This document shows, in pieces, positions 3,796 through 47,920 of a stretch of DNA of 64,000 nt; position 1 is the first letter of the stretch; every line of letters begins with the position of its first letter. The notes beneath the pieces are model-generated. The model had not been told where the DNA came from. It was given only the letters and a program-made list of their open reading frames with translations, and did not search any database. The stretch lies in NCBI RefSeq assembly GCF_988243305.1, contig NZ_OZ547136.1; one strand, given 5' to 3'. A program made the translations under genes and the position numbers.

Positions 3796-4296
3796 TCAGT
3801 CGGCAAAATTTCGCCAAATATCCTGGATATCTTCCATCAGATAGCCACGATAGAGCAGAAAACGCTGGATCTTAACTTTTTCTGAAAAGACAGTTGGCAA
3901 AGGTTCGCCATATTTTCGCGTCGCCTGATCGCGCGCCAGTGCGCACCAGTCGATGTCACATTCACGCATCGCTTTTTCTGTCGCTTCGCGGGAAATACCT
4001 TTCTGATTCAGTTCCTGACGAATACGCGCAGGTCCATAACCTTTGCGGCTACGGCTGGCGATAAAGCGCGCAACAAATCGGCTATCATCGAGATAGCCAT
4101 GTTCATGGCACCAGGCGATAACGCGCTCGTAATCTTCTGCCGTGGCATCAATCTCTTCCGGGCCATTTTTGCCCATAATCGGTGCCGCGAGTTTACGTCG
4201 CAGTTCTTGCTCACTGTGATCGCGCACCGCCAGAATGCGTACCGCACGATCCAACAGGCGAGCATATGCCGGGCGACGGGACGTTGATTCTGTCAT
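3796..4296 (-). CDS. recX: RecA regulator RecX
   Basis: 166 aa ORF recognised as RecX, immediately downstream of recA. Confidence 0.95.
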
Positions 4297-4309
4297 GGCA
4301 TATCCTTAC

Positions 4310-4352
4310 AACTTAAAAAAGCAAAAGGGCCGCAGATGCGACCCTTGTGTAT
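4310..4352 (-). terminator. Hairpin plus T-tract between recA and recX (partial terminator)
   Basis: AAGGGCCGCAGATGCGACCCTT inverted repeat followed on the minus strand by a T-rich run. Confidence 0.45.
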
Positions 4353-4364
4353 CAAACAAGACGA

Positions 4365-5505
<1,141 letters not shown>

Positions 5506-39748: not shown

Positions 39749-42310
39749 ATGAGTGCAATAGAAAATTTCGATGCCCATACGCCCATGATGCAGCAGTATC
39801 TCAAGCTGAAAGCCCAGCATCCCGAGATCCTGCTGTTTTACCGGATGGGTGATTTTTATGAACTGTTTTATGACGACGCAAAACGCGCGTCGCAACTGCT
39901 GGATATTTCACTGACCAAACGCGGTGCTTCGGCGGGAGAGCCGATCCCGATGGCGGGGATCCCCTACCATGCGGTGGAAAACTACCTCGCCAAACTGGTG
40001 AATCAGGGCGAGTCCGTTGCCATCTGCGAACAAATTGGCGATCCGGCGACCAGCAAAGGTCCGGTTGAGCGCAAAGTTGTGCGTATCGTTACGCCGGGCA
40101 CCATCAGCGATGAAGCCCTGTTACAAGAGCGCCAGGACAATCTGCTGGCGGCTATCTGGCAGGACAGCAAAGGTTTCGGCTACGCGACGCTGGATATCAG
40201 TTCCGGTCGTTTTCGCCTGAGCGAACCGGCTGACCGGGAAACGATGGCGGCAGAACTGCAACGCACTAATCCGGCGGAACTGCTATATGCAGAAGATTTT
40301 GCTGAAATGTCGTTAATTGAAGGTCGTCGCGGTCTGCGCCGTCGTCCGCTGTGGGAGTTTGAAATCGACACCGCGCGCCAGCAGTTGAATCTGCAATTTG
40401 GCACCCGCGATCTGGTCGGTTTTGGCGTCGAGAACGCGCCGCGCGGACTTTGTGCTGCCGGTTGTCTGTTGCAGTATGCGAAAGATACTCAACGCACGAC
40501 CCTGCCGCATATTCGTTCTATCACCATGGAACGTGAGCAGGACAGCATCATTATGGATGCCGCGACACGTCGTAACCTGGAAATTACTCAGAACCTGGCG
40601 GGCGGTGCGGAAAACACGCTGGCTTCAGTGCTCGACTGCACTGTAACGCCAATGGGTAGTCGTATGCTGAAACGCTGGCTGCATATGCCAGTGCGCGATA
40701 CCCGCGTGTTGCTTGAGCGCCAGCAAACTATTGGCGCATTGCAGGATTTCACCGCCGAGCTACAGCCGGTGCTGCGTCAGGTCGGCGACCTGGAACGTAT
40801 TCTGGCACGTCTGGCTTTACGAACTGCTCGCCCACGCGATCTGGCCCGTATGCGTCACGCTTTCCAGCAACTGCCGGAGCTGCGTGCGCAGTTAGAAAAT
40901 GTCGATAGCGCTCCGGTACAGGCGCTGCGTGAGAAGATGGGTGAGTTTGCCGAACTGCGCGATCTGCTGGAGCGGGCCATTATCGACACACCGCCGGTAC
41001 TGGTGCGCGACGGTGGTGTTATCGCATCGGGCTATAACGAAGAGCTGGATGAGTGGCGCGCGCTGGCTGACGGCGCGACCGATTATCTGGAGCGTCTGGA
41101 AGTCCGCGAGCGTGAACGTACCGGCCTGGACACGCTGAAAGTTGGCTTTAATGCGGTGCACGGCTACTACATTCAGATCAGCCGTGGACAAAGCCATCTG
41201 GCCCCCATCAATTACATGCGTCGCCAGACGCTGAAAAACGCCGAGCGCTACATTATTCCAGAGCTAAAAGAGTACGAAGACAAAGTTCTCACCTCAAAAG
41301 GCAAAGCACTGGCACTGGAAAAACAACTTTATGAAGAGCTGTTCGACCTGCTGTTGCCGCATCTGGAAGCGTTGCAACAGAGCGCGAGCGCGCTGGCGGA
41401 ACTTGATGTGCTGGTTAACCTGGCGGAACGGGCCTATACCCTGAACTACACCTGCCCGACCTTCATTGATAAACCGGGTATTCGCATCACCGAAGGTCGC
41501 CATCCGGTGGTTGAACAGGTACTGAACGAGCCATTTATCGCCAACCCGCTGAACCTGTCGCCGCAGCGTCGCATGTTGATCATTACCGGTCCGAATATGG
41601 GCGGTAAAAGTACCTATATGCGCCAGACCGCACTGATTGCGCTGATGGCCTACATCGGCAGCTATGTACCGGCACAAAAAGTCGAGATTGGACCTATCGA
41701 CCGTATCTTCACCCGCGTAGGGGCAGCGGATGATCTGGCATCCGGGCGTTCAACCTTTATGGTGGAGATGACCGAAACCGCCAATATTCTGCATAACGCC
41801 ACCGAGTACAGTCTGGTACTGATGGATGAGATTGGGCGCGGGACGTCCACTTACGATGGTCTGTCGCTGGCGTGGGCGTGCGCGGAAAATCTGGCGAATA
41901 AGATTAAAGCGTTGACGTTGTTTGCCACCCACTATTTCGAGCTGACCCAGTTACCGGAGAAAATGGAAGGCGTCGCCAACGTGCATCTCGATGCACTGGA
42001 GCACGGCGACACCATTGCCTTTATGCACAGCGTGCAGGATGGCGCGGCGAGCAAAAGCTACGGCCTGGCGGTTGCAGCTCTGGCGGGCGTGCCAAAAGAG
42101 GTTATTAAGCGCGCACGGCAAAAACTGCGTGAGCTGGAAAGCATTTCGCCGAACGCCGCCGCGACACAGGTCGATGGCACGCAGATGTCGCTGCTTTCAG
42201 TGCCGGAAGAAACCTCGCCCGCGGTGGAAGCGCTGGAAAATCTCGACCCGGATTCACTCACTCCGCGCCAGGCGCTGGAGTGGATTTATCGGTTGAAGAG
42301 TCTGGTATAA
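39749..42310 (+). CDS. mutS: DNA mismatch repair protein MutS
   Basis: 853 aa full-length MutS with Walker [10 protein letters not shown]. Confidence 0.98.
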
Positions 42311-42315
42311 TATTA

Positions 42316-42344
42316 ATGAGCCCCGATTAAACTTCGGGGCTCAT
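42316..42344 (+). terminator. mutS terminator hairpin (ATGAGCCCCG ... CGGGGCTCAT)
   Basis: Perfect 10-bp stem right after the mutS stop, followed by a T-rich sequence. Confidence 0.65.
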
Positions 42345-42414: not shown

Positions 42415-43278
42415 ATGAGAATAACGATTGCATCAATAATTTTAATAATTAGCGCCACTGCAATAGGCGCCGAAGATACCCCTTCACATTTTGATATTCC
42501 CGAGCAAGTATTAAATAATATTACGAAGGAATCACGAAATAAACTGCAGGATATCATTGCCAAGGCTCAACATGGCGATAAAGCCTCACAAACGGTGATG
42601 GGACTCATATACCTGAATGGTCTATCTGAAAGTCCTTCAGTGAAGGATATAAACAAAGCATTTTATTGGCTCAACCTTGCAGCAAAGCAAAATTATGATG
42701 AAGCTGAATTTTACTTAGGACAGATTTATCATTACGGATATGATAATACGGGGCCTAACTATCGTATTGCGATATACTGGTATGAGAAAGCGGCAGAAAA
42801 AGGGAATGAACAAGCTCAAATAAACTGTGCGAATATTTATCAATTTGGCCCACAGGAATTCCAAAACATTAACAAAGCCAAGTATTGGCTTCAGAAAGCA
42901 GTACAGAAGGACAATCCTATTGCACATGCAAACTTAGGGATTATCGGAATTCAAGAGAATAAGTATGCTGAAGCTATCCCTCACTTAAAAATAGCGGCAG
43001 AAAAGGGTCAGCGACTCGGCCAATATAATTACGGGACACTTTTTTTTAATGGTCAGGGCGTTCCCAAAGATATACGACAGGCTAAATACTGGTTTGAGAA
43101 AGCTGCTACTCAAAACTTACCTATTGCACAAATTACTTTAGGACAAATTTATGCCTGGGGGCTTGATGAAAATGGCATAAATAAAGAAGAAGCGTTGCTC
43201 TGGTTAAATAAAGCCAAAGCCCAAGGTCAATTTACTGATAAACAGATCAACGCCATTATTTCAAAAAAAATAGACTAA
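42415..43278 (+). CDS. Secreted Sel1-like repeat (SLR/TPR-like) protein
   Basis: 287 aa with signal-peptide-like N-terminus MRITIASIILIISATAIGA and at least five Sel1 motifs (e.g. KAFYWLNLAAKQNYDEAEFYLGQIYHYG, IAIYWYEKAAEKGNEQAQINCANIYQFG, QAKYWFEKAATQNLPIAQITLGQIYAWG). Markedly AT-rich compared with the flanks. Confidence 0.8.
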   Translation: MRITIASIILIISATAIGAEDTPSHFDIPEQVLNNITKESRNKLQDIIAKAQHGDKASQTVMGLIYLNGLSESPSVKDINKAFYWLNLAAKQNYDEAEFYLGQIYHYGYDNTGPNYRIAIYWYEKAAEKGNEQAQINCANIYQFGPQEFQNINKAKYWLQKAVQKDNPIAHANLGIIGIQENKYAEAIPHLKIAAEKGQRLGQYNYGTLFFNGQGVPKDIRQAKYWFEKAATQNLPIAQITLGQIYAWGLDENGINKEEALLWLNKAKAQGQFTDKQINAIISKKID

Positions 43279-43290
43279 CTCCAAACCAAA

Positions 43291-43959
43291 ATGCTCAAAT
43301 CAATGCCATCTATTCGCTATCACAAAATAGAATCATTTAATTATCGCCATATATGGGCCGTTGGTGATATTCATGGCGATTATCAATTATTACAATCCCG
43401 CTTACACCAACTCTCTTTTTGCCCCTAAACTGACTTACTTATTTCCGTAGGCGATAATATTGATCGTGGGCCGGATAGTCTTAACGTGCTACGCCTGTTA
43501 AACCAGCCCTGGTTTACATCGGTTAAAGGCAACCACGAGGCAATGGCGCTTGATGCCTTCGCGACTGGCGATGGCAATATGTGGCTTGCCAGTGGCGGTG
43601 ACTGGTTCTTTGAGTTAAATGATTCAGAACAAAAAGAAGCAATAGACCTGTTGCTTCGCTTTCATCATCTTCCGCATATTATAGAAATCACTAACGATAT
43701 TATAAAATATGTTATCGCACATGCAGATTATCCGGGTGATGAATATCAGTTTGGCAAGGAAGTAGCGGAAAGAGAGGTACTCTGGCCTGTTGATCGCGTG
43801 CAGAAATCACTCAAAGGCGAGTTAAAAGAAATAAACGGTGCCGACTGTTTTATCTTCGGGCATATGATGTTTACAAATATCCAGACATTTGCCAATCAGG
43901 TTTATATTGATACCGGCTCGCCGGAAAGCGGGCGGTTATCGTTTTATAAAATAAAATGA
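43291..43959 (+). pseudogene. pphB: Ser/Thr protein phosphatase 2 (PP-lambda family), interrupted by in-frame TAA at about 43426-43428
   Basis: Frame reads MLKSMPSIRYHKIESFNYRHIWAVGDIHGDYQLLQSRLHQLSFCP-stop-TDLLISVGDNIDRGPDSLNVLRLLNQPWFTSVKGNHEAMA...; the stop lies between the GDxHG and GDxxDRG metallophosphatase motifs. Confidence 0.8.
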
Positions 43960-43963
43960 CAAG

Positions 43964-44002
43964 ACCGGGTAAGGCAAAGCCTCTACCCGGCACTTTTTTA
44001 TT
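43964..44002 (+). terminator. Hairpin (CCGGGTA ... TACCCGG) with T-tract, between convergent pphB and the decarboxylase operon
   Basis: Inverted repeat followed by CTTTTTTATT. Confidence 0.55.
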
Positions 44003-44247: not shown

Positions 44248-45675
44248 TTATTGACGTGCGGCCAGCATAGCGGTCAGTTTTTCAGCCCAGGCTTTGGTTT
44301 CCGGTAAATCCACCACCGGCTGGCTGTAGTGACCACGGTTGTCCGGGGCGACAGGCGTGGTGGCGTCGATAATCAGCTTGTCGGTGATACCGGCCGGGCT
44401 TGAGCCGGGGTCGAGTTCCAGCACGGACATATTCGGCAACTGCACCAAATCCCCTGCCGGGTTCACTTTCGAAGAGAGCGCCCACATCACCTGCGGCAGG
44501 TTGAACGGATCAACGTCTTCATCGACCATAATCACCATCTTCACGTAGCCCAGACCGTGTGGCGTGGTCATCGCACGCAGGCCCACCGCGCGGGCAAAGC
44601 CACCGTAGCGTTTTTTGGTGGAGATAATCGCCAGCAGGCCGTGGGTGTACATGGCGTTCACCGCCTGCACTTCCGGGAACTCGGCTTTCAGTTGCTGATA
44701 CAGCGGCACGCAGGTGGCTGGCCCCATCAGGTAGTCGATTTCTGTCCACGGCATGCCGAGGTACAGCGATTCGAAAATCGGCCTGGTGCGGTAAGAGACT
44801 TTATCGATACGCACCACGGTCATGTTACGCCCGCCGGAGTAGTGCCCGGTAAACTCACCGAACGGCCCTTCGATTTCGCGTTTACGACTTTCGATGACCC
44901 CTTCGAGGATCACTTCTGAACCCCACGGCACATCAAAACCAGTCAGCGGGGCGGTGGCGATCGGGTACGGGCTTTCACGCAGCGCGCCTGCCATTTCGTA
45001 CTCGGACTGATCATATTTCAGCGGCGTGGCCCCCATCAGCGTGATGATCGGATCGTTACCCAAGGTGATGGCAATCGGCAGATCTTCACCGCGTTCTTCC
45101 GCTTTATGCAGATGCAGGGCGATATCGTGCATCGGCACCGGTTGCAGGCCGAGCTTACGTTTGCCCTTCACTTCCATACGATAGATACCGACGTTCTGCT
45201 TGCCGAAGTTATCCGGGTCGAGCGGATCGCGGGAAACCACGCACGCTTTGTCGAGATAGAAACCGCCATCGCCATCGTTTAAACGAAACAGCGGCAGGAT
45301 ATCGAACAGGTTGATCTCGTCGCCATCGACGGTGTTCTGCGCCCAGGCTGGATTGGCGCGGCGCTCCGGGGCAATCGGGAAGTTATCCCAGCGGCGGATA
45401 AACTCATCAATCTGCTTTTTGACCGGGGTGTTTGGCGGCAGGCCGAGGGAAATCGCGTGGTTCTGCCAGGAACCGATGGTATTCATCGCCACACGGGCAT
45501 CGGTAAAGCCGCGAATATTGTCAAACCACAGCGCGGGCGCGCCGTCGCCGATACGCCCGGTGGCGTTAGCTGCTGCTGCCAGATCCGGTTCCGCGTTCAC
45601 CTCTTCGCTGATTTTCAGTAACTGTCCGTGGTCATCAAGCGCCTGTAAAAAGCTGCGTAAATCATCAAATGCCAT
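44248..45675 (-). CDS. UbiD-family (prFMN-dependent) aromatic acid decarboxylase, BsdC/VdcC-like
   Basis: 475 aa with the full-length UbiD fold; sits in operon between the UbiX-like and small-subunit genes. Confidence 0.85.
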   Translation of the reverse strand: MAFDDLRSFLQALDDHGQLLKISEEVNAEPDLAAAANATGRIGDGAPALWFDNIRGFTDARVAMNTIGSWQNHAISLGLPPNTPVKKQIDEFIRRWDNFPIAPERRANPAWAQNTVDGDEINLFDILPLFRLNDGDGGFYLDKACVVSRDPLDPDNFGKQNVGIYRMEVKGKRKLGLQPVPMHDIALHLHKAEERGEDLPIAITLGNDPIITLMGATPLKYDQSEYEMAGALRESPYPIATAPLTGFDVPWGSEVILEGVIESRKREIEGPFGEFTGHYSGGRNMTVVRIDKVSYRTRPIFESLYLGMPWTEIDYLMGPATCVPLYQQLKAEFPEVQAVNAMYTHGLLAIISTKKRYGGFARAVGLRAMTTPHGLGYVKMVIMVDEDVDPFNLPQVMWALSSKVNPAGDLVQLPNMSVLELDPGSSPAGITDKLIIDATTPVAPDNRGHYSQPVVDLPETKAWAEKLTAMLAARQ

Positions 45676-46267
45676 TATTCATTCTCCTGAGAAAAATTCC
45701 GGACCTGCGGCAATCCTTGCCAGCGCCTGGCGTGGGATGTTCGAGGCCAAATTGATCCAGCACGCGGGCTACCACGTGGTGGACAATGTCATCTACCGTT
45801 TCGGGATGGTTATAAAAGGCAGGCATCGGCGGCACCATCGCCACGCCCATGCGTGAAAGTGCGAGCATATTTTCGAGATGGATGGTGCTAAGCGGCATTT
45901 CACGCGGCACCAGCACTAGTTTGCGGCCTTCTTTGAGCACGACGTCCGCCGCGCGCCCTACCAGGCCATCGGCGTAACCGACACGGATACCGGCGAGCGT
46001 TTTCATACTGCACGGAATAACGATCATGCCGTCGGTACGAAAGGAACCTGAGGAGATGGTCGCCGCCTGATCCGCCGGGTTATGACTGAAGTCTGCGAGG
46101 GCAGCAACATCGCGAGCGCTGTAAGGCGTTTCCAGTTCAATGGTGGTTTTCGCCCACTTCGACATCACCAGATGAGTCTCGACATTCGGCATCTCCCGCA
46201 GCGCTTGCAGTAATGCCACCCCAAGAGGCGCACCGGTAGCCCCTGTCATCCCGACGATCAGTCTCAT
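45665..46267 (-). CDS. UbiX/Pad1-family flavin prenyltransferase (BsdB/VdcB-like)
   Basis: 200 aa MRLIVGMTGATGAPLGVALLQAL ... typical UbiX N-terminus; overlaps the start of the UbiD-like gene. Confidence 0.85.
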   Translation of the reverse strand: MRLIVGMTGATGAPLGVALLQALREMPNVETHLVMSKWAKTTIELETPYSARDVAALADFSHNPADQAATISSGSFRTDGMIVIPCSMKTLAGIRVGYADGLVGRAADVVLKEGRKLVLVPREMPLSTIHLENMLALSRMGVAMVPPMPAFYNHPETVDDIVHHVVARVLDQFGLEHPTPGAGKDCRRSGIFLRRMNNGI

Positions 46268-46941: not shown

Positions 46942-47920
46942 TTACTCGCGGAACAGCGCTTCGATATTCAGCCCCTGCGTTTGCAGGATTTCGCGCAAAC
47001 GGCGCAGGCCTTCAACCTGAATCTGGCGAACACGTTCACGGGTGAGGCCAATTTCACGACCTACATCTTCCAGTGTTGCCGCTTCGTACCCCAGCAAACC
47101 GAATCGACGTGCCAGTACTTCACGCTGTTTGGCGTTCAGCTCGAACAGCCATTTGACGATGCTCTGCTTCATATCGTCATCTTGCGTGGTATCTTCCGGA
47201 CCGTTCTCTTTTTCATCGGCCAGGATGTCCAGCAACGCTTTTTCGGAATCACCACCCAGCGGGGTGTCTACCGAGGTAATGCGCTCGTTAAGACGAAGCA
47301 TACGGCTGACGTCATCAACTGGCTTATCCAGTTGCTCTGCGATCTCTTCCGCACTTGGTTCGTGGTCCAGTTTATGGGACAACTCGCGTGCGGTTCGCAG
47401 GTAAACGTTCAGCTCCTTTACGATGTGAATCGGCAAACGAATAGTACGGGTTTGGTTCATAATCGCCCGTTCGATCGTCTGGCGAATCCACCAGGAAGCG
47501 GAAACCACGTTCCGGGTCAAACTTCTCTACCGCGCGGATCAGCCCCAGGTTGCCCTCTTCGATCAGGTCCAGCAACGCCAGACCACGATTGCCATAACGG
47601 CGGGCAATTTTTACCACCAGACGCAAGTTACTCTCGATCATCCGGCGGCGGGAGGCAACATCTCCACGCAGTGCGCGACGCGCAAAATAAACTTCTTCTT
47701 CGGCCGTTAACAGTGGTGAATAACCAATCTCACCAAGGTAAAGCTGAGTCGCGTCCAACACACGCTGTGTGGCTCCCTGCGATAACAGTTCCTCTTCGGC
47801 CAAATCGTTATCACTGGGTTCCTCTTCTACTAAGGCCTTTTCGTCAAAAACCTCAACTCCGTTCTCATCAAATTCCGCATCTTCATTTAAATCATGAACT
47901 TTCAGCGTATTCTGACTCAT
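46942..47920 (-). pseudogene. rpoS: RNA polymerase sigma factor RpoS (sigma-38) disrupted by an internal deletion/frameshift of about 14 bp
   Basis: Two overlapping minus-strand ORFs in different frames: 47372..47956 encodes RpoS from [11 protein letters not shown] to [11 protein letters not shown] then runs out of frame; 46942..47520 encodes [14 protein letters not shown] ... LFRE. The junction reads CGCTTC|CTGGTGGATT and residues STYAT are missing. Span is 979 bp against the 993 bp expected. Confidence 0.85.

Follow-up and report, generated by a model that had tools for sequence, protein, structure and literature searches.

Escherichia coli encodes two protein phosphatases of the PPP family that resemble the phosphatase of phage lambda, and PphB (PrpB) is one of them; its paralogue is encoded by pphA, which lies outside the stretch of DNA studied here. 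In the lambda phosphatase (lambda PP) and other PPP enzymes, residues of motifs I and II act in phosphate binding and as ligands of a binuclear metal centre, and the core sandwich of the fold includes the N-terminal strand-helix-strand. As for the chromosomal setting of the gene, Herbelin in 2000, Kotewicz in 2002 and Ewers in 2014 are said to have described a polymorphic mutS-rpoS region, with both gain and loss at the level of whole segments. Recombination and the gain and loss of genes are frequent in this part of the E. coli chromosome, which is known for its mosaic structure and gene turnover (PMC4209514, PMC7232297). The papers on the region that were read do not mention a nonsense mutation at codon 42 of pphB (E42*). 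Regarding function, PMC6213207 and PMC6610125 cite Missiakas & Raina (1997) for a reported influence of PrpA and PrpB on the CpxRA-dependent response to misfolded proteins in the periplasm, including htrA.

The window, a stretch of 64,000 nucleotides from contig NZ_OZ547136.1 (RefSeq assembly GCF_988243305.1), carries an allele of pphB that has very probably lost its function, recently and within a single lineage. The sequence-only reading had placed a TAA inside a pphB-like gene, and this is borne out by both the raw sequence and the frame translation (Table 1). Read as a single frame, 43291-43959 yields MLKSMPSIRYHKIESFNYRHIWAVGDIHGDYQLLQSRLHQLSFCP, the internal TAA, and then TDLLISVGDNIDRGPDSLNVLRLLNQPWFTSVKGNHEAM, running on to a terminal FYKIK and stop; immediately around the TAA, the translation reads RHIWAVGDIHGDYQLLQSRLHQLSFCP, stop, TDLLISVGDNIDRGPDSLNVLRLL. 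In the list of ORFs, the interval is consequently split in two, with one ORF at 43291-43428 (45 aa) and another, with a GTG start, at 43486-43959 (157 aa). The ATG at 43291 had also been taken as the start of the gene. However, the co-linear gene of the relatives 118UI and GN25, annotated as pphB, protein-serine/threonine phosphatase, begins at the ATG that corresponds to window position 43303 (MPSIRY..., 218 aa, 657 nt). Thus, the true start is 12 nt downstream of the ATG at 43291, and the stop is codon 42.

Table 1. Positions of the features at the pphB locus, counted from the first nucleotide of the window.
Feature	Position	Strand	Remarks
mutS	39749-42310		Intact 853-aa ORF
Sel1-repeat protein gene	42415..43278	+	287 aa; hydrophobic, signal-peptide-like N-terminus; Pfam Sel1 E=3.2e-40
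pphB (prpB) frame, pseudogene	43303..43959	+	218 codons, broken at codon 42; aligns co-linearly to the 657-nt pphB annotated in 118UI and GN25
Motif I, GDIHG (Asp22, His24)	43363..43377	+	Align to lambda PP Asp20, His22 (1G5B)
TAA (E42*)	43426..43428	+	G to T at 43426 relative to GAA of intact alleles
Motif II, GDNIDRG (Asp51, Asp54, Arg55)	43450..43470	+	Align to lambda PP Asp49, Asp52, Arg53
Residual 157-aa ORF from GTG (codon 62)	43486..43959	+	Called as a gene by some pipelines (RDP19234.1)
Motif III, GNHE (Asn77, His78)	43528..43539	+	Align to lambda PP Asn75, His76
GC-rich hairpin (CCGGGTA...TACCCGG) and T-run	43965..43999		Between convergent pphB and ecdD; found by eye

The identity of the interrupted gene can be judged from the complete frame. 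When Glu takes the place of the stop, it matches Pfam Metallophos (PF00149) with E=4.9e-15 and 56.9 bits, against a cutoff of 21.5; with the stop treated as a sense codon, it aligns to lambda PP (1G5B) with E=7e-60 over residues 6-216. At the DNA level, it is 99.7% identical to annotated pphB. Because the homology to Metallophos and to 1G5B extends over the whole frame, the stop sits inside a real gene and not between two ORFs that adjoin by chance. Homology over the entire Metallophos domain, the presence of all three motifs and a position beside mutS allow the frame to be assigned, by ancestry, as a PphB/PrpB orthologue, a metallophosphoesterase of the lambda-phosphatase-like PPP family. The name pphB/prpB given to it from the letters alone is right.

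The catalytic motifs, for which the PPP motif I-III definitions of PMC535813 were used, are divided by the stop. It had been noticed that GDxHG and GDxxDRG lie on opposite sides of it, and this is indeed the arrangement: motif I is upstream, and motifs II and III are downstream. Motif I is the sole catalytic motif in the 41-aa N-terminal peptide that precedes the stop. Motif II comes after the stop and before the only in-frame restart codon, and is thus translated from neither ORF. No uninterrupted ORF joins motifs I, II and III; the longest one that remains starts at codon 62 and contains motif III only.

A stop codon of this kind may be an artefact, that is, an error of sequencing or assembly in a genome that truly has GAA and an intact pphB. 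Of the 5426 complete RefSeq E. coli genomes, 181 match a 61-mer that has the stop at its centre, each with exactly one mismatch (the codon itself was inspected directly in two of the 181, 118UI and GN25), and the TAA-containing 61-mer is found at 100% in 0 of the 5426. The one-base difference from 181 complete genomes speaks for an error. Nevertheless, TAA occurs at the same site, with identical flanks, in 5/5 loci taken from different assemblies, four from NCBI (GCA_966574595.1, GCA_017598645.1, GCA_974490345.1 and GCA_045572375.1) and one from ENA (ERZ1741622). Instead of the sense codon that would have spoken against the sequence-only reading, these independent assemblies, which come from different projects, also carry the T. 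In addition, the exact 157-aa ORF with its GTG start is called on 162 contigs in a large protein collection (256 blocks in the contig index), with inspection at the nucleotide level covering five of these 162 or more contigs, and the site is outside any homopolymer run. An error of this sort is scarcely conceivable, and E42* is, on the agreement of these assemblies, a real, inherited clade marker. Elsewhere, an exact 44-mer scan found no copy of the TAA allele in the GTDB species representatives. The protein collection has no exact entry for the 41-aa or 45-aa N-terminal peptides, which says nothing about the allele, as gene callers skip such short ORFs.

Codon 42 is variable among intact genes. 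It specifies Glu or Lys, is Lys in lambda PP, and is located between motif I and the strand leading into motif II. In the alignment with the window, 118UI and GN25 have Glu (GAA) here and K-12 has Lys (AAA); the Lys that the sequence-only reading gave for the K-12 protein is correct. From this Lys, a single change from AAA to TAA had been proposed. A single-base substitution is indeed what is seen, but the source codon is a different one: an origin of TAA from AAA in a K-12-like ancestor was rejected, as the allele family to which the window belongs has GAA. The pphB of the window shows 99.7-99.8% identity with the allele of 118UI but only about 85% with that of K-12. Given that both of the intact alleles of the same family that were inspected have GAA and that 181/181 of the matching complete genomes are one base away from the 61-mer of the window, the most parsimonious event is GAA to TAA by a single G to T transversion at 43426. 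The GN25 gene (4104-4760 of locus L002, aligning to window positions 43303-43959) is itself a composite, in which about 300 nt at the beginning are identical to the window-type allele and the remainder is of the K-12 type, which implies a recombination breakpoint within the gene.

The inactivation is young. Once codon 42 is set back to Glu, the translation coincides exactly with a 218-aa protein present on at least 1000 contigs, and the six TAA copies (that of the window and the five others) are identical to one another within pphB. This lack of secondary decay, together with the match to a common intact protein, indicates that the gene was inactivated recently. Over 12.4 kb, the five TAA loci are 99.5-99.9% identical to the window, with no further difference inside pphB. 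Two of them, L004 and L008, have zero substitutions relative to the window; L005 and L007 have clustered substitutions in ecdC/ecdB or in the spacer between the MarR regulator gene and rpoS, a pattern typical of recombination tracts. The presence of these tracts in the flanks implies that the TAA clade has some depth. The persistence of E42* across a clade old enough to have acquired them is a point against a simple loss of function, as the fragment might have kept or gained some role.

The lineage that carries the allele is sparsely represented among finished genomes. The best of the 5,426 complete RefSeq E. coli genomes is 99.0-99.1% identical to the window over 24 kb (measured at 1-24000 and at 32000-56000), and the window thus comes from an E. 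coli lineage without a close complete-genome representative. Draft or GenBank-only assemblies, for instance GCA_966574595.1, are essentially identical to it. Regarding the species at large, pphB was found by sensitive blastn in 5411 of the 5426 complete genomes, at least 80% of the gene being present in 5376 of them. A megablast count of 3519/5426, by which pphB would be missing from about 35% of E. coli, was dropped in favour of the sensitive blastn figure, the shortfall being due to the insensitivity of megablast at about 85% identity. By these counts, pphB comes near to being a core gene, and a null allele throughout a clade is mildly remarkable.

Translation could also restart beyond the stop. 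Between the stop and codon 62, there is no in-frame ATG, GTG or TTG. The GTG at 43486, which is codon 62 and encodes the Val of NVLRLL, is 57 nt past the stop and downstream of GDNIDRG; no Shine-Dalgarno match is present in the 18 nt before it (gggccggatagtcttaac). The next in-frame ATG, at 43543, is already beyond GNHE. As the GTG comes after motif II, a product restarted there would lack motifs I and II, two of the three metal-binding motifs. The sequence-only reading had pointed to this GTG and to the absence of motif I from its product, which holds, although it understated the loss, as motif II is gone as well. The refuting case named there, in which orthologues naturally start at this GTG, does not fit the matches listed, every one of which is full length from the upstream ATG.

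Re-initiation at this GTG, or at the ATG at 43543, would give a C-terminal fragment that might act as a catalytically dead pseudo-phosphatase or as a binding protein. The 157 codons form an uninterrupted ORF with no secondary lesions in the six copies compared, and some pipelines annotate it as a protein; for instance, RDP19234.1 and RDP62169.1 are the 157-aa remnant under the name 'Serine/threonine-protein phosphatase 2 [Escherichia coli]'. The absence of decay, however, is also what would be expected of a young mutation in a protein that is otherwise identical to a common intact allele. Moreover, residues 1-61 are gone and, with them, motifs I and II of the conserved N-terminal subdomain (PMC535813), while the fragment scores 20.5 bits against Pfam Metallophos, under the cutoff of 21.5 bits. 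Considering also the lack of a Shine-Dalgarno sequence and the distance of the GTG from the stop, a functional fragment is very unlikely, and efficient re-initiation at 43486 is probably lacking. The naming of the 157-aa remnant as 'phosphatase 2' is a mis-annotation of a pseudogene fragment.

Alternatively, full-length PphB might be restored by readthrough of the stop codon or by a suppressor tRNA. Nothing was found in favour of this. Among the stop codons of E. coli, TAA is the one at which termination is most efficient, and it is not known as a recoding codon in this species; selenocysteine insertion uses TGA together with a SECIS element. A programmed recoding site would be expected to show a stop conserved across orthologues along with a signal, whereas here the stop is confined to one clade, and the intact alleles examined have ordinary sense codons (GAA, AAA) at what is a variable position, with no sign of a conserved recoding site. 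Thus, restoration of the full-length protein by this route is extremely improbable.

With loss of function as the very probable reading, the consequences of the allele can be outlined from the sequence as follows. The G to T change turns Glu42 (GAA) into an ochre stop, and translation from the normal start ends after 41 residues, leaving a peptide with motif I alone. The remainder of the gene would go untranslated, save perhaps for weak re-initiation at codon 62 (GTG). The product of such a restart would be without Asp22, His24, Asp51, Asp54 and Arg55, that is, most of the ligands of the two-metal centre, and also without the N-terminal strands of the fold core. By either route, the cell would be left without PphB phosphatase activity. 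This prediction is based on what the motifs are known to do in lambda PP, by which no active phosphatase would be possible from the E42* allele. For a gene such as pphB, which is very probably non-essential, one nonsense mutation is nothing out of the ordinary.

The neighbourhood of the gene bears on whether other genes would be affected. The order mutS-Sel1-pphB is annotated in 118UI and GN25, while in K-12 mutS is followed directly by pphB. The Sel1 gene, present in 118UI and GN25 and absent from K-12, lies between mutS and pphB and ends 24 nt before the latter, and this short gap suggests that the two genes are probably co-transcribed as one unit. A terminator-like hairpin found after mutS by a consensus scan (42316-42344) parts the Sel1-pphB pair from mutS. 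Beyond pphB, on the opposite strand, are the decarboxylase genes ecdD, ecdC and ecdB, followed by a MarR regulator gene and rpoS. The hairpin between pphB and ecdD is likely a terminator shared by both, judging from its sequence; the consensus scan does not list it, its T-run beginning 3 nt past the stem. With this terminator, pphB comes last in its transcription unit, and E42* is expected to have no polar effect on other genes.

Two further lesions are found in the same part of the window. In ecdB (minus strand, 45665-46267), which encodes a UbiX-like decarboxylase subunit B, a 1-bp deletion at about 45734 changes GTGAGGATG into GTGGGATG. Near the 3' end of the gene, it swaps approximately the last 20 residues, from ...EHPHARRWQGLPQVRNFSQENE to ...EHPTPGAGKDCRRSGIFLRRMNNGI, for a product of 200 aa as opposed to 197. 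This deletion is present in L004, L005 and L008 but not in L006, L007 or 118UI; by this distribution, only a sub-clade of the TAA strains carries this second lesion. In rpoS (minus strand, about 46942-47920), 14 bp have been deleted at 47494/47495, the lost letters being GTTGCGTATGTTGA on the plus strand of the relatives. The reading frame is shifted at about codon 143 of 330, so that what remains of region 2 is lost together with regions 3-4, and an RpoS null is predicted. The deletion is private to the window, as the 330-aa rpoS is intact in five of the five relatives of the TAA clade. Loss of rpoS is common in isolates that have been stored or passaged in the laboratory.

Hits on stress-related genes have thus occurred stepwise within 4 kb, with pphB E42* in the clade, the 3' frameshift of ecdB in a sub-clade and the 14-bp deletion of rpoS in the strain of the window. 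In this setting, the loss of pphB may have been selected and not neutral, as part of an adaptive change by which a rare E. coli lineage, with a nearly universal gene switched off, rewired its signalling in envelope stress and stationary phase, although we regard this as unlikely.

The E42* allele is already in public databases, where it is mis-annotated. The proper annotation of the locus is a pphB pseudogene (E42*) and not the 157-aa 'phosphatase 2' that appears in at least two GenBank records. The G to T change at 43426 offers a clean marker of a rare E. coli clade that is unrepresented among the 5,426 complete RefSeq genomes. Since over 99% of E. coli genomes have pphB, strains with the TAA would be natural pphB nulls and could help to study the physiological role of PrpB, which is poorly understood. 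Beyond annotation, E42* matters very little, being an ordinary young, lineage-specific pseudogene.

Compared with the systems already described, the window lies inside the polymorphic mutS-rpoS region, and the mosaic pphB of GN25 fits the character of that region. Lambda PP (1G5B) shares its fold family with the frame of the window, and all metal-ligand motifs are conserved between the two; it is, however, an intact phage enzyme, and it served only to map the catalytic residues that are lost. K-12 PphB/PrpB (P55799, serine/threonine protein phosphatase 2) is similarly encoded just downstream of mutS, by 218 codons, with the three PPP motifs. Unlike the gene of the window, that of K-12 is intact, has Lys42 (AAA) and shows a DNA identity of only about 85%. 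Its neighbours also differ, with ygbI coming next in place of the ecdDCB decarboxylase genes and no Sel1 gene ahead of it. Another close counterpart is the intact pphB allele of the mutS-Sel1-pphB-ecdDCB-MarR-rpoS arrangement (for instance in 118UI, 042 and ST69; WP_001139307.1), which has the same neighbourhood and 99.7-99.8% DNA identity. It differs from the gene of the window by one synonymous ACC/ACT difference at 43692 and by GAA where the window has TAA; once codon 42 is read as Glu, the two proteins are identical.
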